Source: Tubiluchus corallicola
Lineage: Eukaryota; Animalia; Priapulida
Reading direction: 5' to 3'
Length of the DNA stretch: 64,000 bases
NCBI GenBank assembly: GCA_030141605.1
Contig: JAQGDQ010000002.1
Coordinates: 310,001-374,000 of the forward strand
Position 1 is the first letter of the stretch. Every line of letters starts with the position of its first letter. The position numbers and the translations under genes are program-made. Positions 49,546 through 63,109 of this stretch are shown here, piece by piece. The notes beneath the pieces are model-generated. The model searched no databases and was not told where the DNA came from. It worked only from the letters and a program-made list of their open reading frames with translations.

Positions 49546-52500
49546 TCATCTCGTTACAAGTGAAACCAGAAGAAAAGAAAAGAGGGAACCGCAGAAGAGA
49601 CCAAATGTTAACATGAATGCACATACAGCACCGGCAGTCTCTGCAAGCTCATTATTAACTTTTCTGTAAGAAGAAAATTTCTTTGTGTAAACTTTTTCAC
49701 AGCATTTAAATAAATAGAACACAAGTCTAAGTAAATCTATACTAAATTTACAATCCGAATTGCTAGTTATTAGAAAATCAGCTTTTTGGGTAAGAAGGAA
49801 TGCCACCGAGAGAAAGGAATATTGCAAAATTTCCATCTAGAAACTAATAGTAAACATGTACGGTATAGTTTTTAAAGGTTAATGTATAATGACAAAGAAC
49901 GGATTCATAAACAATATCAATAAAAAATCAGTACAGTGTACAAGTATGCTTCATCATGTGTAGATTCAATATTACCTGGTGACTTAAACATACATTGTTT
50001 AACAAAAAAATTAAATTAAGTCTTCATACTTTGTCTATAGGTAGTGATTAGTTTAGTAGAACTGCTTACTTAATGACTGCTTGGTGACATATAGGTGTTA
50101 CGAAAGGACAAGCATAATAAACGAAGTACATGTACGAGCTATCCTGCCTGCTGTATAAACTAACTCACTTGTGAATGAGTTAGTTCAAATATGTACTATT
50201 ATGTTGTTGTTTTCAATCTTATTTAATTCGTTTTTAATATTGCACTTTGCCAACTGAACACTCAATTCCTGTAATGCTGGTGATAGTAATTTAATTCCGA
50301 TAGCTTACTTGAAACGCAGCTTGCTTTCTTACAAAACACTAAAGGCTTTTGACTACATCAATTTCCTAACCAAAAGAAATTTAGCATTAAGTTTTCTGCC
50401 TTTGGTCACTTTAAAAAACACTTGGATTTGCTTGTTAGTTCCTGTTTGTATAGTATTGCATGTTGCTAATGCGACGTGAACAATTCTATTATCATGTAAA
50501 TAAATAAACCATGCTTGTTGCAGGGGAAAAATCCAGTGTACAAGTTGTAGAAGCATTCTAACTAGTTAAACCACTGCATTTCTAGATACCAATAACAGAA
50601 TGCTGCAAAAAATGTACTATGTCGTGAAATTTAATAGCCATAAGAAGGCTGGATGAAAGGACAAAGGGACAGGTGCTCCTTGTGTCAAGGCCAGCAATTC
50701 TGTGCAACAGGATATTAATAATAAAGTCTGCCATAATAGGTTTGGACTATTCAAATAAATACTTTTTGCACAACAAGCTCTTGAAATTATGTACTTACTG
50801 AGGTCCATGCATCATTGATATTGTGCCTAAATAACCATTTGTTATTGAAAAGCCCAGCATGAAAACTATTGGCCATGCATCATGATTGAACACTACTGGG
50901 ATGTCATTTCGTGGCTGTATATTACAAAACAAAAACAATGGGATGAAGACGACGCGTAATGCACAGAGAAGTGGAAGTAATCGGCTACCTAGCTTTGGCT
51001 GAAACACAAAATAAAACATGATCAAAATTAAAAATATTAAGAAGTAATATACACCACAAAAATTTTCAAAGACCTTTAAGAGGGACGGCTGAAAAGAGGT
51101 TTCATAAAGCCATCACTAAGTTAAAGACATCGTTATTACATTCACTTAACTATTAATACTGAATCTTTGAGCTAGTGATGGTTTTGTGAAAATGGGCCCT
51201 GGTTCAGACTTATAACAATAATTAGTTCTATTATGCACATTTAGATTTGTTAATTAATTTTTCCAAAAGCAAAACATAAAATCTAAAACAGATAAATTTT
51301 TATAATATAAAAGAGAGAATTACTATTAGTTTGTAACTCAGTAAAATTACGTTCAGGGCAAATGACAAAATGTAAATATTTAACTAAGTCAGCATAAAAG
51401 ATATGAACATATATCAAAGTATAAAGGAAACAGTTCACATGTAATAACTAATAACACATAAATTTTTAATAACTAACTAGACAGAAACAACGATAGAATT
51501 TCAGTTATCAAAACACCATTTATAAGAATAATTGATTACTGTAAAGGTACAGTATAGCAACACTATAAGTTTTACATTTAAGACATGCAACTGCTAAAAT
51601 GATTTAAATGCTATAAGCTTTAAACAAATATCACAAAAAGGATTAGATAAGTAAGCTTCGTATTGTACTGAAAGTATAGGAAAATCCTGTTTTGTCTAGA
51701 TAAACATGTAAGTAATAACTATACGAACCCAGGATAAATAATCTATTAAGAATCTACCTAAAAGATCTCCAACACCATACAGTAGAAAACAGGCAATAGG
51801 AATAAATAATTTATCTGCAAGAAGAAAAATTACAGACTTGATAAAAAGAGAAAACCAAAAGTGAAGAAAAATATAAATTCATGCATGAAATGCAGAGCTT
51901 GGATACAACTAAGTGTCATTAGTAGGAAAACCGCCTGTCGAAGTGACAAAGATTTTTCAACGAAGGCAAATGCAACTAAGTAAGGTGTGAACATTTTTAC
52001 TGAGTGGTCAGTGCTGATCAAATGTCAGCCAAACTCTACAGTCTACATCATCACTATGTGTTTTCACAGCTAAATAAAGAAAGACAAAGAATTTAGGAAA
52101 TAAGATCAGTGGTGCAGTAAATGTCTTATTGCGCCATTTTATCATCGATTACTACTCGCTTAGCAGAAAAACAAGAAGTACCATTTTAAATCTTTGACAT
52201 GACTTTGGTAATCATAACCTACCAGAAGAAAAGCAAACTCAGTGGCTCTCAAAATGTTGAATTACAATGCACCAGCAGCACGCTACTGGCTGCAGAAACA
52301 AAATGACTTGAATAAGTGGTAACTGCAGAGATCTATTCTAGGCTATCAGTAAAGAAGGAAAAATGACTGCTATGACCATAGTGACTAATTGCAGAACCCT
52401 GCAAAACTAACATATCTCCAGTCTATAATGATCATCAAAATTAGCATTTTGTTTCTATGCTGATATTGGAGTTGTCTCACACAATAATGGAGTCACTTTC

Positions 52501-55500
52501 TAAATTGGTGAAGTTGGTGAACATTAAAGCCTAACAAATGCATTATTATAATGCATGAATTTGAATTATTGTAATGTAAATTTCCAAAGTCATGGTGCAA
52601 TTTACATGACGTATAAATGATGAGGTTATACATGAAAAATATATTGATATAACTACCACACAAATAACACAGTCTTCAGGTTTTGCTCTTGGGCTTGATA
52701 TGATTACCAAGAAGCGATCCTAGAAATACATCTACTCTAACATATGAAACATACCAACACATCGTTAAAGGAAGTTTTAATAAGTTAGTCATAAGTGACA
52801 CACACGTACACACACACACAGAGAGAACACTGAAAACAACACTGAGTATGTGAAAGTTGTAACTGTATATTTTAGGTGCTGCCATCTATTGATTAGTTAC
52901 TTTAACATTTACTAGTTCAATTCACCCCTAGTACAATTGTTCGGTCAAGTGAATATTCAAACTCACTGTATCTCCCCTATTTTACTGTAATGGGATATGT
53001 GAAGCCAAGTTTTTGCATAGTTCTCTACATATATAAACTGGCTAGATTTCACTGCTAGTGACTCTCTGTCTCAGGCAGTGCAGTCGTGCAACTCGTGGGA
53101 CACACTGTCTCTCTGTCACACACTCAGTGCTGTGCAGCAGTTGTGATCTTCATTTTACTTGTGCATTTTATTATGTATTTAGTGCAATAAAAGTGTTCCA
53201 GTTTTTGTGCAAACATGCAATCTAGTGTTTAGTTGTTTTCTACAAGTGTTCAATTTCAACTTCACCAATAAAATTCACAGAGTAAAAAGAAAAGGATATG
53301 ATTACACATGCAAAAAACAATTTTATCTACTAGAAAATCATTCGCAAGAAAAGTAGTATATGAAGTAAAATGCATGCAAATCCGGAAAATAGACATTGTA
53401 TCATACCCATTCAACAATGCCAGTAATGATTCGTCCTAACAAATCTCCAAAGTTGAATAGTAGAAAGCAAACTACGGGGATGAACAATTTAGCTGCAGAA
53501 AACACAGGCATTACTCACATTTTAAACTATTTCAGATTTTATAATCCAATAGTTCACTCAGTCTGTATAGCATAATTAAAAATAGCATTTTTCACGCAAA
53601 AGCTAGTAGTTCACAAAATTTGTCAAAAAATTACATTAAAGCATACAGTTTATAGTAATATAAAAGTAAATGTTGCAATATTAAAGAATTATAATAATTT
53701 GTAATCAGTCAAGAGTGAACATAAAAGTATTCTTTGAAAGAGAAGTCATGTAGCAAAGAATTTTGCAACAAAATTACGATTGATTTGATTTTGTCTGCAA
53801 AGTGTGTCATTAAAGCACACGGCTGTAATACCAAGAAGTGACTTTACTTTGCATTCTAATGTGCCAAAAAACTCAAAATATCATGTCAAAATGCATCATT
53901 TACCCCTAATTCAAAGACAAAAGGAATCACTGATTGTCCACATTCAAGAATAAAGTCAAATGAGCAATGTCCAGTGTGAACAACAATGGAAAGTAAAATG
54001 AGCGAATACTTACTTGACCACAGATTATTACTAGGTGTGTTCATACTTTGTATGTTAGAGCAAATTGGTGGAAAAAGACACAGTGTTACGAAGAATACCA
54101 TCCAAACTGATATGGCTTCTGTTTTTACCTGAAGAAGAAATGGTATTAAAAGAAAAGGTGCAAATGTTTTTTACAGTCTCTGACAAAGAATTACAATAAC
54201 AGAAAAATTTCCTAGGTGAAAAGTTTGTGGGTAAAAAACAACCAAGTTGGGAAAGTTAAAACAAAAAATTCTGAATGCCTTATTATGCCAATGCAAAAAT
54301 GAATCCATTAGAAATGAAGGGGTGGGAGCAGACTTAACTTAATCCCATTACCGGAACATTACCATCTTAAGTCAAACAGATTTCACTAGATCTGCCTCTG
54401 CATGTACAACAAATAACCAATTTTACAAGAAAAAGGGTTGGCTCACTTCTCCCTAAATACAACAAACCTCTATTATTTTGTTATGTTTGTCAAGCAATTT
54501 TTACGAGTCCCTATAACTTAACCACGCTAGTCCAAAAAGCGATTCTGTATTACTATTATTCACGATGACACAACTTAAAAGTAACCAATGATTTGCCTTC
54601 TCTTTTATGCAATTACTCTTCAAAATTTCCTTTTCAATGTTCTAATTCCCAAACAGTTTTGTCAACAACATGACAACAAGCCTGAACGCCTCCTGCAGTC
54701 GCTTCTAAACTATAAATTCGGGTAGTATTGATTGCTATTGTTGCATGCACAGTGCAAACATAAAAAGGCATGATACTATATAATACATACTAGCCAGAAT
54801 ATTTTTAGAAATGGTGGTGTTTTTTGTTTTGTCTTGGTTTTTTCCTCATGTTCCATCGAACCAGATACAGAAAGCATAATTTCAGAGCTTGCTGAATGTT
54901 GCCATTCCACTTCTTTATCTTCAGTTTTGCCAGCAGCTAGGGCATTAGCAATGTCACTTTCGTCAACTTCGACTTTGTAGTAATCATAAAGGTAAAATCG
55001 TCCAAACACCTGGAAAAATATTCTACTGCATTACAACTTAAAAGGCAATAATTATGCTGGTTGTTGAAAAGGCACAAAAATATTAAATCAGTGAAATAAA
55101 GTATTATCTAAAATTGGTCTCTTAAAGATGAAATGTGCACAACTTCATAATCATCAGACTGCAAACAAATAAAAATTATGTTAACTTAAACACTACGGTA
55201 AATAAAGTAACTGCAAAAAAAAAGACTGAACGAATTCAAATTCAATAAATGCAAATGTAATAACATGACAATGTTTACACCTGACTATACTTGGTCAATA
55301 CTTGTAAATTACTACACTCAAGGTTACTAACCAGTGTGCGCGTTGCTTGTAACGAATTATTATTTGACTGTACCGTTTGCCCTAATTTTAAAATTTTAGT
55401 TCCTGTCTTGGGCCTTTTAGAGGTATTCGATATTATGCATTTTGGCTCTATCACGGGTGCGTAAAAAATCCCAGTTTTTTAAAACTCTACCTCACAATTT

Positions 55501-58500
55501 CAAGGCATTATTCCATCCCAGGCGTGTCTACCCTGCAAGCATTGTAACTCTAGCACTGTAATTAACATGAATTAAACAGTGAAAAATTGGATGCCGAGCG
55601 TAATGATGAAAAAACCCAGTGTATGGATTCTCTTAGAGCTGTGACGCTCACGCTCATGGATAATTACCACCAAGTTGGGAACACAAGATGAGGTTAATAT
55701 TAAAAAAAAAACATATACTAATTTCAATAATCTGTGACTGGCAAATAGATGTTTATTCTCAAGCTTTCATTACCGGACTTCAAGTTTAAAATTATATGTT
55801 GAAAACATCAGTCCGAGTTATTTTAGTTAGGTTACTTTTTATTTAAACTTCTATTTCTCCCAAGAAGCCACATTCGAATAAATCTGTTGTAATGAGGTCT
55901 GCATTAATGACGGATCACTGCGCTTACAGTTTCTGGAGTTCACAAATTTCGAAAGTTATAGACTGCCTACACGTGAGCGAGTTTTTGCACATACAGCCTT
56001 GCTGATTACTGGAACTAGTGAGCACATCACAGGATAATTAAATATATTGATTTTACCGTATGTGATAGGCTCAAATAAGCTATGATAGCGACGATAACTG
56101 CAACAGTAGCTGTGAGAAAAAAAGCGAGTGCACTTGTTTCGGGTGTCTGTCCACCTGCTCCGACAGTAATTATACTTGCTATAGCAGCAAACAAACCTGC
56201 GGCAGCCTATATACATTAGAAAAAAAGAAATATATGTATATTTGCATTTACCTAGTTTAAATGAAAATGAATGGTTACGTAAGCCAAATCACAAAATGCC
56301 AAAAAACAAAACTAATTAAAACAACATTCATGCATTATTAATACTTTCATCTTTATGTTGCAACTTATATCATTTCAATGACAAATTGGGTGTAAGTTAA
56401 TTATGGTATGAATGCAGCAGCTTGCAGGAACAATATAATGTGAAAGCCAGAAAGACTTTGTTACTGTATGGCAAGTTATCCAGCAGTTTAGCCATTAACA
56501 ATATTCAAAATACAGCAGCACATAAACTGCTGAATTCAACTCTAATGTGCTTTAAGTCTATTATATTGTCCATCGTGGAATTCAGAAATATCATACTTTT
56601 TCTGAAGCACATACAAATCCAGCAGATGTACAGTGACTCTTGTAACGAAAGATTTCAGTTACCAAAAAGGTAACTACAATCTGAACGTGATGCACATCTG
56701 CTTAATTATATATGTTTCTTGTTACCTGGCCTTTCATGGTTGCTGTAGTATAACGGGGCGGCAACATGGCTGACAGTCCGAAAATACTAGCCTGAATTAT
56801 TGCACAAGCACCTGGCAAGAAATAACAAAGCTCTCATAATATGCATAGCTGTAAGGTCTGTGTAAATGGATGTGTCTTAGCCCTGCTTTAATGATAATAG
56901 ATATAGTAAGCAGTCATAGGCAAAGCAGCTATTTAGTTTCACAGGAAGGCACACAGCATCTAATAAAAAGTAAAAAAGTTAGAAATTTGACACTAAAATT
57001 CTTCTAATGACACTAATAAATTAAGAAGAATTCGGGTTTTATCAAATGCAGAGAACTACCAATTTCAGTTAAAATGCGCATCTCAGTTTATAGAGTAATA
57101 ATTTATGTGAACGCGTCACCATCAAAATTACGTTAAACAGCTTACAAGCTTTTACTTTTGGCTCTTATTGACAAAGACATGATTTCATTTGATTGTCTTC
57201 ATAATCAACTAAAACTACCATTTAGGAGCATTATTGTTTTATAGAAGGACCTCAAGCTTCCAGATAGAAAATGGGACACCACACTTAAGAAAGGCAGAAA
57301 GGCTAAGGTTCTCATCAAAGCTTTGTCAATTTTGTGCAAACTACAAGTACAACACCTTGTATTTTTTGATTCTCTAAAAATGAGAAACACCTATTCCTGA
57401 ATTACAAGTTGCACAACCTCCAACACAACACTAATAAATAAAAACACAAGAAGTTCACCGTTGATCTCTGTAAGTACCCATATACACATGGACATTTCAC
57501 ACAAAAATCAGGGAGAATCATTTGTAACTTTACGATAATCTTCATCACGTGGGTCACTAAAATAGTTATCAATGGATGCATTCAACAATACATACGTAGC
57601 TTTGTTAGTCCTTAAAAACATCAACAAAAAAATATACGCATTAAGCAGAAAAACAAAAACAGGCATAACTGTGCAGTATTCAGAACAGTCAAACTATCAA
57701 CAATATTGCCCCCGTCATACGATACAGCTGTTAGGGTTTCTACGTCCAGCCACCAATATTAACTGCCAAACAAAAAACATTCTAAAGAGAAAATGCAAAA
57801 AGTAAAGAAAATGAAAAAATAATCAACATTATCAAAGCACTAGCAAATGAGAAGCACAAATTTGTCAAACTTTTTGGCTTTTCCAGTGATCACTCTACTT
57901 ATTGTTTCTCCTTATTACAGCCAACAAAATCCATGATGCAAAATATCTTATGCCAAGCAATAAAATCTATCTCCTTAGTGACCTCTACAGAAACCCTCTC
58001 CCTAACAAAATTCTTAAACATTTCCAGCAAGTAAAATCCTCTTCACAGTTCACTTTACATGTTATTTGTTTTCAAGTCAAATGGCATTAAATTTGAACAC
58101 ATAATTTTTTTGTAGTAGAATGAAGAGTTTTTTCCAAGCACATGACTGCAACATTGTAAACTGCATTTTGACACCCCTTCATCTCAACTCAGACAGCCCA
58201 AATTTTCAATTAGAACATTTGAAAATCAGAAACATAAGTTAACAACAATACTTGTGAATATTGAATATCCGACTATATCGTATGCGAATTAATTCTTGTT
58301 AACATCCAGGTTTGCCTATCGTAAAATCAATTGTAAAGTAAACATTTTAGCTTTAAAAAGAAAGCTTAGATAATTAGAAAACAGAAGGTAAAATAAACAA
58401 TTTTCATGCACAGAATACAGCAGCAAATTAACTACCTATTTCCATTAAGCTGAGCTCATTAGTGCAATGTTAAAGGAGCATGCAAATTCTTCAAAATCAT

Positions 58501-61500
58501 GCAAGTAAAACTTTCAAGTTCCTACCTGCTCACAGTAGGAAGGCAAAACTTCAACAAGTATACTTACTACTTAATGTGGCTACACAGACAACCGTGATCA
58601 CAAAGAAAACCATCTGCCCTGAAATAAAAATCAAAAGCAGTTGAAATGATAGCATCCTGTAACCTCACTTTCCTCAAGATCTGTTAAAGCTATGGAACTA
58701 TTAACAATATGTAAAAAAGTACTTATTAATGTGTGCAAATCTTCTGGTTAGATTTCCCACGCTTTTTATCTCTTTAGTTGTAACATTTGAATTTAGTCAT
58801 TTTCATTATTGTCGATCTTTATGCAGTTTGGCAGTTTTTAAGCTTGTAGACTATAATGTAGAGTATTCAACAATAGAGCCTACTTGATGCAAATGGCTGT
58901 GGCAAAACCAAGATCTAGATCATTTTCAAAGGAATCCTGTAAGAGGAGATACTGAACTTGCTGAGATGCATTAGACAAGCTTAATGTACAAAACCTTGCC
59001 AATGACGCAACTAACTGGAGATAGCATCCTGCCCCCAACGGATGTAGCAATGAAACCGCCCCCAAAGCAACTCAGAAGCAATTTCTGCAGTGGTCACCTT
59101 CCCCAAATTGATTTATTAGCCAGCCTACAACATTGCAGTTTCTAACTAATAGATTGTGACCCCTCAGCTATTCATACTAACCGTGTTTTATTTTATTTGG
59201 CCTGGTCTTTACTGTTTAATATATTACACTAAAAAATGATTTCTAAACAGGCTTGAACACTGACAGTGGTAAACAGATATCTACACTATTATAAAAACAA
59301 TATCAACTAGTACAGTAAAAGTATTTATAAATACACTTACACGTGTCCGTGTTAACTTGAGTGAGAACTGTTGTTAAAATGAAGATAACTAACATCATGA
59401 AAAGCGAACTTAACATCCGTAATGATGCTGAAAATCTGAAACAGGCAATGTAGTAACATTAATAAAATATTCTGTAGGAAGAAAGGTGCATGAAAGCAAA
59501 ATTTAATGTTAGTATTTTGATCACACCCAGCGGAGATTACTGTCAAGACTAGCAGATGTCAAAATTAAGTACACGATACAGAAACCTTTATTACCCGATA
59601 TCACAGTATTGTAACAACGTTACAACACAAAATGTAATCATTAAAAATACAATTTACAAAGTAATAAGAGAAAAATTATAAGATGATTAATAAATGACAA
59701 TAAGCTATACTCAATAAACAAAACATTCCAAAAATACGCTTCGAAAATGTTGTTTTGCGAAGTTTAAAGGAAACAACATTAGAAAATATGTAAAACGCTT
59801 TTTTAATCGAATTCTTGTATTCGGGATTTAGTGTTGAGAAATGTGCCAACTTGCCGTATTGTCAAAACATGGTGTCATTATTTTTTAACAACTTTGGTTG
59901 ACCAGATCTACCATTGCAAACAGGTTGTCTTTTGCTAATGAGTCAATATGTAGCCGTTCTGCCTAATTACTTCTCAATAGGCCACTTAGCTATCAATTCT
60001 AAATAGGCTTCCTACATTATCTATATATTTTCTTAAATTGAGTTGAGTTAGCATAGTATGTTGCACAACACTATGATATCTATGAAAACTCCTTATCAAG
60101 GATATTCTGTAACCTCAGTATAAAGGTATGATTCACTTTTGTATTACATAACATTGTAAATGTTTATTTACAATGTAAAATCTAATCAGTACATCTCTAT
60201 CATTGATAAATTACATTAGTAAATTATACTATACTAATTTATTTATATTACTAAAATGTATAGTTAAACTGTTTAATATTGTAATGTAGCAGTTTCAACA
60301 TATTTATATGCTACAAATATACTTTACTAATATAAATCATCTCATGTAGTCATTGTACATATCATAATGTGAAATCTCAATAATAATTATGTGCATATTT
60401 TGATCCCTTGTTGTTAATTTTTTTCAGAAAAACATGACAGCAATGAAAAAAGCAGCAGTTAAAACATACATATTTTGGGGGTCCGAAAAAAGTTTAGGTT
60501 TTTGAATGTGTGGGCAAAATTGAGCACTCAGACTGTCAATCTCACCTTTACGATCAAATGAACAATAAAAATAAATCCATTTTTTCTTTATTTTTGACAT
60601 TTGGAAATTTACTGCATAAATTCTCAATGTTTCCAAAACACTGTTCTTATATCCTGGAAGCTTTAAAGCTGTTATGAATGAATTTTTTAATGAATGTATC
60701 TTGCTCCAGAGAAAAAATGGTTTATTATGATGAACGAATTTTTGGGGTGCATTAAAAAAACTTTTATTGATTTCTCCATAAGTTTAATAGTTTGAAAACA
60801 TGCAGCCCCAAGAATAAGGGATAGGTATTCTTTTTTTATAAATAATACAAAAAGCATTAGTTTATCAAGCATTTCTTTTCTTCTGTGATAATTACTCATA
60901 AAGTAAAAAACAGTACCACTAGAGCATGTAAAACTCAATAAACTTACAAAAAAAGTTTACAGAATCATGCTAGACTGTGATATAATTAAACTTACAAAGT
61001 TAGTAATATCGTACTCAAAAACACAAACAAGATATTTGCGACCATAGAGCTGATGCTAAACCAATTCTCAAATGTAACTTGTAGGTATGTTTTCTGGTAC
61101 ATCCAGTCTGTCTCATTTAAAGATGTGTTTCTAAGCTTGTAATTGAAATACTAGAAAATACAAAAAAAGTTAAAAATTATACACACCACTTTGTAAATTT
61201 CAAACTCAAAACTCATTCATTCCTCGCAAGACTAGCTGAGCCTAAAAGCACACTATCTTTTTTGGCACAACATCATTGCAATGTAACTATGCATCCAAAT
61301 ATAACTAAGTTCAGTGTCTCGACTGCCTCCTCCAAGGGGTATGTCTTTCGCAGTTTGCCAGGTATAACCTTGCCAAACAACCATCTTACGAATCTTACGA
61401 CTTATATTGGGCACTGCTGCTGCTAATAATAATTTATTATACCTTTAATAATATCTCTGAACCAACCGAAAACCATATTAATCTTAATAATGTTCACCCA

Positions 61501-63109
61501 TATTGATGTAACTACACACACGCTAGTATATATCCATTTCTAACAAAACCAGTATCCCTTTCAAAGCCAGTTCTCTCAATTAGAGGTGAGCATCGAACGT
61601 TCAAATTCGATTCGAACAAGTTTTTTAGTTCGAATTGGATTCGAACCAAATCAAGATCAAAATCAGGTAATATGTATGATTTTTGTCAAACCCATTTTTA
61701 TTAATGATTCGAAAATCTTTAAAAGTGAATTCAAATTTGTTTTGGATTCGAAAATGCTGAAATTCAGTTTGATTCAAGTTCGAAGGCCACAAATTTGATT
61801 CGAATTTGCTTTGTAGTAGAGAATGCTCACTCAACCACAGATTTAGCAACAATATGGGCTACACTGCAAGCCATTTCTAAAAGTGACTGCACATGCATAT
61901 CTAAACTTTCTGTTACATAACCAAAGAATTTGGTAAGTGATATATGTAATTATTAGAAAGTTGTAAGCACCCTTACATCATTAGCAGTGATATAGAAGTT
62001 CCACGGAAGTAACTGTCCCATTCCAATGAGTGCAAATATGATGTAAACCACATTGTATCTGAAAAATGACCAGTTAAAAATGTAAGCAAGTTTTGATACT
62101 GCTAGCAGGTGCAGTGCATAGGTAAACTGCGATATGTCCTAGAAATTTTCTTTCCAAAGTTATCAGCTAGTCAAAAGAGAACTATTGATTGACTGAGCAC
62201 TACACTGTGACTGCAGCACATTTTGGGTGACCAAGTCAGACCTTGGTAATGACTCAAGATCATCTGCATTTCTACGATAGTTCCTTGTCATAATTAATCA
62301 CATTAACCTAACAACAACTATCTTAACTTTACAATATGCCTTAAATGAGGATTCTGCTTACCACAGATTACCAAGACATGTAAGCATAGGTATTACACAG
62401 ATGCATGCCAATACACCTTTAAAAGGTCTTGCACATTATTCACAATTACATGCTCCTGAAAAAACTGATTCAACAAAAATACTTTTAAGTGGATGATAAT
62501 GACCTTTTACATATAGCATTTTACATATTTTCATTCTGAGGTGCTCAGTTAACCAAAAAATACACAAATCAGTAGACTGCTAGACAGCAACTTATCTTTC
62601 TTTTCTACGTACATTTTGGATTTTGGTTTTTTATATTGATCACAGCAAAAAAATTCTGATATTTGTTTGATGTACTCAGTCAAACAAATGCATTCAATGC
62701 ACTTTAAGTGCATCATTCATTCATGTGAACAAAAGGTAACTCATAACTTTCTCAAAAAACTTTTTTTAGCATACTCCAAAATTATAAAAATTTTGCATTT
62801 GCATATAAAACAGCAGGTAAAACTTTTTCAGAAGTTTATAGATATCATGAATATGTGTAATATATGAATGGAACAGAAGCCTTTCTCTCTCATTGTCTCA
62901 CACACACCCATAGACTCCATCAACCATCAACCTACCAAACACCCATATGACTCTCTATCTCTCTCTCTCTTTCTCTTCTGTACTCACTTGTCTTTTGGTC
63001 CTGGTTTACCATCTACAAGTCCGAGTCTGGAATCAACACGTTTAATCACAGGCTTCTGTATCAAAGCATCAGTTTCTTTAGGTTCTACATCATCATATGT
63101 TGTCCCCAT
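49546..63109 (-). CDS. SLC29A1: Equilibrative nucleoside transporter (SLC29A1/2/3 family)
   Basis: Exons 63109-62988, 62058-61977 (GMGQLLPWNFYITA), 61150-60996, 59435-59341, 58618-58568, 56811-56726 (QASIFGLSAMLPPRYT), 56206-56057, 55009-54791, 54128-54014 (VTLCLFP), then 53492-53407 or 51814-51729, 50998-50799 (RVVFIPLFLFCN...SITNGYL), 49663-49546. Exact paralog assignment is uncertain. Confidence 0.92.
51100..51200. mobile_element. Short PIF/Harbinger-like MITE remnant (28-bp inverted arms)
   Basis: TTTCATAAAGCCATCACTAAGTTAAAGA ... TCTTTGAGCTAGTGATGGTTTTGTGAAA (23/28), followed by ATGGGCCC. Confidence 0.5.
51729..51814 (-). CDS. ENT TM8 exon, variant B (mutually exclusive candidate)
   Basis: ttgcag|AT KLFIPIACFLLYGVGDLLGRFLIDYLSW |gttcgt; 86 nt, same phases as variant A. 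Confidence 0.82.
53407..53492 (-). CDS. ENT TM8 exon, variant A (mutually exclusive candidate)
   Basis: ctgcag|CT KLFIPVVCFLLFNFGDLLGRIITGIVEW |gtatga; 86 nt, phase 1 to 0. Confidence 0.9.
61581..61834. mobile_element. hAT-like MITE with TTCGAA subterminal repeats
   Basis: TAGAGGTGAGCAT ... ATGCTCACTCAA inverted ends; many GATTCGAA/TTCGAA motifs inside. Confidence 0.6.

Follow-up and report, generated by a model that had tools for sequence, protein, structure and literature searches.

Two preserved TM8 exons in a predicted nucleoside transporter gene of the priapulid Tubiluchus corallicola are likely spliced one at a time

Introduction

A 64,000-nucleotide stretch of the genome of the priapulid Tubiluchus corallicola (positions 310,001 to 374,000 of contig JAQGDQ010000002.1, assembly GCA_030141605.1; hereafter the window) carries a gene of the SLC29 family of equilibrative nucleoside transporters (ENTs) on its minus strand, at 63109-49546. 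ENTs control adenosine signalling and the uptake of nucleoside drugs. The gene has 11 constitutive coding exons and, between the ninth and the last two of them, two versions of an exon for transmembrane helix 8 (TM8), here called A and B; with either one it has 12 coding exons.

Tandem exons that are used one at a time are familiar in other transporter families: SLC12A1/NKCC2 (exon 4a/b/c), SLC7A2, SLC39A14 and SLC25A3 all have them (PMC8373072, PMC5740500), and in flies they are enriched among transporters and channels (PMC8373072). Statements from published papers rest, here and below, on excerpts of those papers. In this report we describe the anatomy of the A/B pair, the selection that has acted on it, the changes that it would make in the protein and the sequences from relatives that bear on its use. 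We conclude that the gene probably holds two preserved copies of TM8, of which a full transporter takes only one at a time, and that these are likely spliced exclusively into an A and a B form, with predicted differences in affinity or turnover but not in the class of substrate.

Results

Exon A (53407..53492) and exon B (51729..51814) are each 86 nucleotides long, each is flanked by AG and GT, and each is entered in phase 1 and left in phase 0. A encodes residues 360-387 of the 492-residue model and has the canonical F337/N338 form of the helix. B has Y337/G338, keeps D341 and R345, and has diverged at its cytoplasmic end (I348, D349). We use human ENT1 numbering, assigned from the spacing of T336, N338, D341 and R345 in the literature. 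The donor of constitutive exon 9 (E9, 54014..54128; TM7) is common to A and B, as is the acceptor of constitutive exon 11 (E11, 50799..50998; 200 nucleotides, TM9-TM10). The introns measure 521 nucleotides from E9 to A, 1,592 from A to B (51815..53406) and 730 from B to E11. The two exons share 16 of 28 residues, nine of the 16 through different codons, and 51 of 86 nucleotides. In the 60 nucleotides of intron on either side only 23 and 19 bases are alike, so the flanks are unrelated.

The reading frame depends on how many of the two exons are included. With A or B alone the frame is open over 492 codons. When both are present a stop appears inside B, at codon 406, some 230 nucleotides before the last junction; when both are skipped the stop falls about 12 nucleotides into E11, at codon 363. 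By the last-junction rule both products are expected targets of nonsense-mediated decay (NMD). The initial annotation had described two paralogous 86-nucleotide exons with phases 1 to 0, of which both or neither would shift the frame, and had counted 16 shared residues, nine of them encoded synonymously; coordinates, lengths, flanking AG and GT, both stops and the recount all agree with it. Mutually exclusive exons (MXEs) born of tandem duplication are adjacent and homologous, of like length and the same phase, and encode the same region of the protein. A and B have each of these properties, and a transcript that contains both or lacks both is non-productive by frame, presumably through NMD.

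Do the two exons encode the same helix? A aligns without gaps to residues 296-322 of 6OB6, a crystal construct of human ENT1 (E-value 0.00095), and B aligns without gaps to the same stretch (E-value 0.036). Both match positions 181-207 of the Pfam family PF01733, with E-values of 2.2e-6 for A and 2.9e-4 for B; at 27.8 and 20.8 bits these 28-residue segments score under the cut-off of 29.8 because they are short. When a TM8 profile built from homologues was scanned across the window in six frames, A scored 56 bits, B 35 bits and the next match 12 bits. Among 13 exon-segment profiles run on the window, TM8 was the only one to find a second copy; the other 12 found none.

The divergence between A and B points to constraint on both. 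By the Nei-Gojobori method the proportion of synonymous differences per site (pS) is 0.81, which is saturated, against 0.27 for nonsynonymous differences (pN), and pS was no greater than pN in only 1 of 5,000 codon bootstraps. This bears out the earlier proposal of long purifying selection on both copies. Over codons 1-20 pS is 0.85 and pN 0.16; pN rises to 0.55 over the last eight codons, which encode the cytoplasmic end of the helix and hold six of the 12 residue differences. For comparison we used 151 TM8 helices, taken from 168 proteins after removal of a relative's protein (P0001, described below) with nine cluster mates, and of seven gapped rows. Nine columns of this set are at least 80% conserved; B keeps seven, altering only 337 and 338, and the A/B differences are biased towards variable columns (p 0.047). 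B has three family-rare residues (G338, I348 and D349), which is the median of natural members, and A has two. Compared with the U1 complement, the splice donor of B agrees at 7 of 11 positions and that of A at 5; of the 23 nucleotides at the acceptor, 16 are pyrimidines in B and 14 in A.

Chance retention of such an exon was gauged in two ways. Random placement of 34 changes left an open frame and at least 16 identities in 3e-5 of 200,000 trials. In a simulation of a neutral copy, the splice sites, the frame, 16 identities and seven of the nine columns were all kept in 13%, 4.6%, 0.27% and 0 of 100,000 trials at 0.15, 0.2, 0.3 and 0.45 changes per site, respectively, and the saturation at synonymous sites favours the higher of these rates. 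Since the exons are intact, their synonymous sites saturated and their flanks unrelated, both copies appear to have been long under selection. Judged from its sequence, the pair is real and old, a tandem duplication that selection has preserved. Four residues are shared by A and B without Priapulus, three by A and Priapulus and one by B and Priapulus. This is a weak hint that the duplication probably postdates the divergence from the Priapulus lineage.

Relative to A, exon B retains F334, D341, G344 and R345 and carries the changes F337Y and N338G; the Asp/Arg pair of TM8 that binds ribose, D341/R345, is therefore in both. The initial annotation had identified TM8 by F334, N338, D341 and R345, an assignment that the alignment to 6OB6 upholds. 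Its placement of the change from FN to YG needs refining: the change falls at 337 and 338, and both exons retain F334. Tyrosine at 337 is a common variant, found in 17 of the 151 homologues. At 338, asparagine is found in 136, serine in 8 and glycine in 2. Among the 15 homologues without N338, 13 retain D341 and R345, two of these with glycine. P0074 and P0093 are natural ENT homologues with glycine at 338 and both D341 and R345 kept, which makes them useful for comparison with exon B.

In human ENT1, D341 and R345 bind the inhibitor nitrobenzylmercaptopurine ribonucleoside (NBMPR) at its ribose hydroxyls, and F334 and N338 touch dilazep in an outer 'opportunistic site 1' that NBMPR does not use (PMC10353158). 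Position 338 faces the cavity, and the roles of these residues are described in other papers as well (PMC9168172, PMC12061832, PMC9678926, PMC8899516, PMC13118991). Because N338 lies in the outer site and not at the ribose, and because D341 and R345 are unchanged, tuned kinetics are likelier than a new substrate class: the swap likely tunes affinity, turnover or gating for natural substrates.

Both forms carry L336, C154 and I33. Isoleucine at 33 is of the insensitive type. Leucine at 336 is likewise described as NBMPR-insensitive, and serine at 154 lowers NBMPR inhibition about 2,500-fold (PMC10353158); an effect of C154 would be an extrapolation from serine. With these three residues in both forms, NBMPR and dipyridamole assays may read insensitive for both, and inhibitor assays may be uninformative for telling the A and B forms apart. 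The earlier suggestion that B alters substrate or inhibitor specificity is weakened by this, as it is by the identity of D341/R345 in the two forms and by the position of N338 in the outer dilazep site.

Putative transcripts from relatives bear on the use of A. P0001 is a protein of 489 residues on a 1,925-nucleotide Logan contig, identical to the A model at 460 of 489 positions (94%). The contig is likely a spliced transcript. It has one TM8, which is like A at 26 of 28 residues and like B at 16, so splicing of E9-A-E11 with B omitted takes place in a close relative, provided that B is present there. Sequencing run X2, which we guess to be RNA from a relative about 92-95% alike, joins only E4, E5 and E6. 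One of its base changes gives the same Met-to-Thr replacement as in P0001; the two may thus be one lineage, and we do not count them as independent. At 85% or 80% likeness no X2 contig lay on E9, A, B or E11, a blank that speaks neither for nor against the use of B. Searching proteins with exon B together with 12 in-frame intron codons gave none from two candidates, a weak result given that E11, searched likewise, gave 1 of 16, and a degenerate exon B pattern had no match in metagenome contigs, a result to which we give no weight as evidence. No TM8 difference among isoforms was seen in the six multi-member clusters aligned, out of 18 isoform clusters listed for homologues. Four long homologues have two TM8 profile matches 160-490 residues apart and are likely fused or tandem models, not exon pairs.

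The remaining coding exons are E1 (62988-63109), E2 (61977-62058), E3 (60996-61150), E4 (59341-59435), E5 (58568-58618; 51 nucleotides), E6 (56726-56811), E7 (56057-56206), E8 (54791-55009) and the last, E12 (49546..49663), which encodes TM11 and the stop and is single-copy in the window, all on the minus strand. A tblastn search with P0001 matches all 13 exons of the model, and one X2 contig that skips the E4-E5 and E5-E6 introns supports it. P0001 carries PF01733 at 245 bits against the curated cut-off, and E11 of the window alone scores 64.8 bits. The AlphaFold model of P0001, which is of the A form, has a mean predicted local distance difference test score (pLDDT) of 88.9 from an alignment of 66 sequences, and the TM8 exon forms a single helix in it (353-381). 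Human ENT1 structures are its best matches (6OB7 at an E-value of 2e-23, and 6OB7, 8TZI and 6OB6 all at 1e-21 or below), with a template modelling score (TM-score) of 0.96 by target length. The gene is thus a predicted equilibrative nucleoside transporter of the SLC29/ENT family, with the 11-helix ENT fold. A quick tree built from 49 of the 168 proteins places P0001 beside Priapulus caudatus as its sister, with a Shimodaira-Hasegawa-like approximate likelihood ratio test (SH-aLRT) support of 100; its identity to that species is 55%, and to each of four other named animals it is 40-44%. This placement by itself makes a priapulid or kin the likely host.

How might the choice between A and B be controlled? 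Steric hindrance, in which a donor and branch point closer than about 50 nucleotides block joint splicing, is ruled out by the 1,592-nucleotide intron and by an AG 24 nucleotides upstream of the B acceptor, which leaves no long AG-free zone. For a docking site and selector of the Dscam type, 24 short inverted pairs were listed in 50700-54200, without a shuffle control, and none was seen with one arm common to both exons. The hexamer TGCATG, which we take to be an Rbfox-type motif, occurs at 53378, 53312, 53219 and 51885 in the A-B intron; three copies lie within 250 nucleotides downstream of A, and B has one upstream and one downstream. Windows with at least three copies make up 0.35% of 2,550 on the minus strand. 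Constitutive E5 also has three, one of the A-side sites lies inside the interspersed repeat described below, and there is no strand bias (32 versus 35), so the hexamers that follow A give only a weak lead to a control element. At E5 the three copies (58410-58503) fall within 160 nucleotides downstream of the exon, and its 51 nucleotides are divisible by three; E5 could be a regulated cassette.

Also within the A-B intron, at about 52750-53260, lies an interspersed repeat of high copy number, with many variants and a summed depth above 1,000 in contigs of sequencing run X1. Short repeated elements at 51100-51191 and 61580-61830 are present in X2 contigs too; the former is an inverted repeat with 28-nucleotide arms 36 nucleotides apart.

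Discussion

We regard mutually exclusive use of A and B as quite likely. The A form would be canonical and the B form a variant spliced in some tissue or stage. Exclusivity would be enforced mainly after splicing: translation of transcripts with both exons or neither would end well ahead of the last junction, exposing them to NMD. Frameshift with NMD is the best-supported safeguard of exclusivity here, and in 60% of human MXE clusters exon lengths are not divisible by three (PMC5740500). The B form would keep the ribose clamp of D341 and R345 and the aromatic residue at 334 and would lose the asparagine one turn above D341. That loss, together with the reshaped cytoplasmic end of TM8, would give the transporter a differently tuned outer vestibule and gating. 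With this functional change included, the explanation as a whole is less certain than exclusive use alone, though still more likely than not.

Several observations weigh against this interpretation. No transcript or protein with B was found in the runs, protein and metagenome-contig searches. The YG pair at 337/338 is in none of the 151 homologues, nor is D349, and the helix-profile score is lower for B (41 bits) than for A (58 bits). A study of residues 334 and 338 by Visser in 2007 is said, from its title, to name N338 as a determinant of protein folding. The random-placement null is sensitive to rate: with 15-20% change per site on the B branch, a neutral copy is equally intact in 5-13% of trials. 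Finally, the ratio of nonsynonymous to synonymous change between A and B sums both branches and may be compatible with a recent loss of B.

Such a loss is the most serious alternative, although we think it rather unlikely. B would once have been a working exon and would now be silent or decaying, with A effectively constitutive and B a remnant or the source of a misfolded product. The sole relative's protein found uses A; B alters two columns that are at least 87% conserved and has, besides D349, an isoleucine at 348 that occurs in 1 of 151 homologues; and its donor departs from consensus at +3 and +4. Human MXE clusters, moreover, usually pair one ubiquitous with one restricted exon (PMC5740500), a pattern that fits exclusive splicing equally well. 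Yet the length, frame and both splice sites of B are intact amid unrelated flanks, and its count of rare residues is ordinary. If synonymous divergence is split evenly between the branches (0.45 per site), none of 100,000 neutral trials keeps B in its present state, and 0.3% do so at 0.3.

Somewhat less probable still is that both exons are used and the swap alters folding, stability, trafficking or contacts with lipids or partners, leaving transport kinetics as they were. D341, R345, F334 and L336 are unchanged, half of the 12 differences sit at the cytoplasmic end of the helix, and the documented contact of N338 is with a synthetic drug, as this explanation would have it; but the only two highly conserved columns changed are the adjacent 337 and 338, and 338 is the cavity-facing position in human ENT1. 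It is very improbable that B stems from an assembly error, represents an allele or is a fragment of another, paralogous gene. No sequencing-run contig covers A and B together, which leaves some room for it, but the synonymous saturation between them far exceeds allelic difference, the other exons have no second copy in the window, and a contig from run X1, which is DNA-like and may be the source sample, spans 51790-52039 across the B acceptor with one letter different. Exclusive splicing of two working exons is the interpretation that we retain.

The kind of mechanism is already known. Like A and B, the human SLC pairs are homologous tandem exons in transporters, and joint inclusion in SLC12A1 shifts the frame and leads to NMD (PMC8373072); exon 4 of NKCC2 encodes a membrane helix whose variants differ in ion affinity (PMC6873903). 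They differ from A and B in belonging to other families and folds and in having cDNA support and measured function for both exons, where here there is support for A only. Human ENT1/SLC29A1 (6OB6, 6OB7, 8TZI; PF01733) has the same fold and the same TM8 motif with D341 and R345 but, going by the catalogues searched, a single TM8 exon. SLC29 has no match in the parts seen of the supplements of two human MXE catalogues, and the splice variants described for ENT2 are non-transporting truncations, not helix swaps (PMC7732376). We found no published tandem-exclusive-exon case in SLC29, in literature that included few subscription papers and not the fly MXE catalogue; as far as that literature goes, the SLC29 instance is new.

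A parallel exists in Priapulus caudatus, the closest named relative, where the predicted ENT1-like isoforms X1-X4 (XP_014663895-9) also differ in a homologous cavity helix. Unlike the window gene, all four have one TM8, and database predictions give them two versions of TM11 through alternative last exons. The versions part exactly at the E11/E12 boundary, and 13 of the following 36 residues are identical (P0167/P0165/P0166 versus P0016). The exon-segment profile found no second TM11 exon in the window, where the gene has only 49546-49663. Residue L442 of TM11 is a determinant of purine versus pyrimidine in human ENT1 (PMC10353158); it is retained in both Priapulus versions. In isoforms X1 and X4 of Babylonia areolata (P0011 and P0012, compared with P0003), a 10-residue insertion that repeats a neighbouring motif sits at the end of TM10, near the last exon boundary. 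A bolder proposal, which we hold only tentatively, is that the B form, as a naturally occurring Asn338Gly transporter, accepts a different range of substrates (leaning, for example, towards nucleobases) or has an altered outer gate. ENTs of the priapulid lineage would then have duplicated a cavity helix on two independent occasions, TM8 in the window gene and TM11 in Priapulus caudatus.

The finding has limited impact, since mechanisms of this class are well known and enriched among transporters, the animal that carries the gene is an obscure invertebrate, and the use of B is putative. If our interpretation is correct, a selection-preserved swap of the helix that bears D341 and R345 would be the first productive ENT isoform switch in the literature searched. 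The exon pair would be a natural test of the role of the conserved Asn338 for physiological substrates, its published contact being with a synthetic inhibitor. Together, the TM8 swap described here and the TM11 swap in Priapulus caudatus would, if true, be natural experiments on ENT selectivity.

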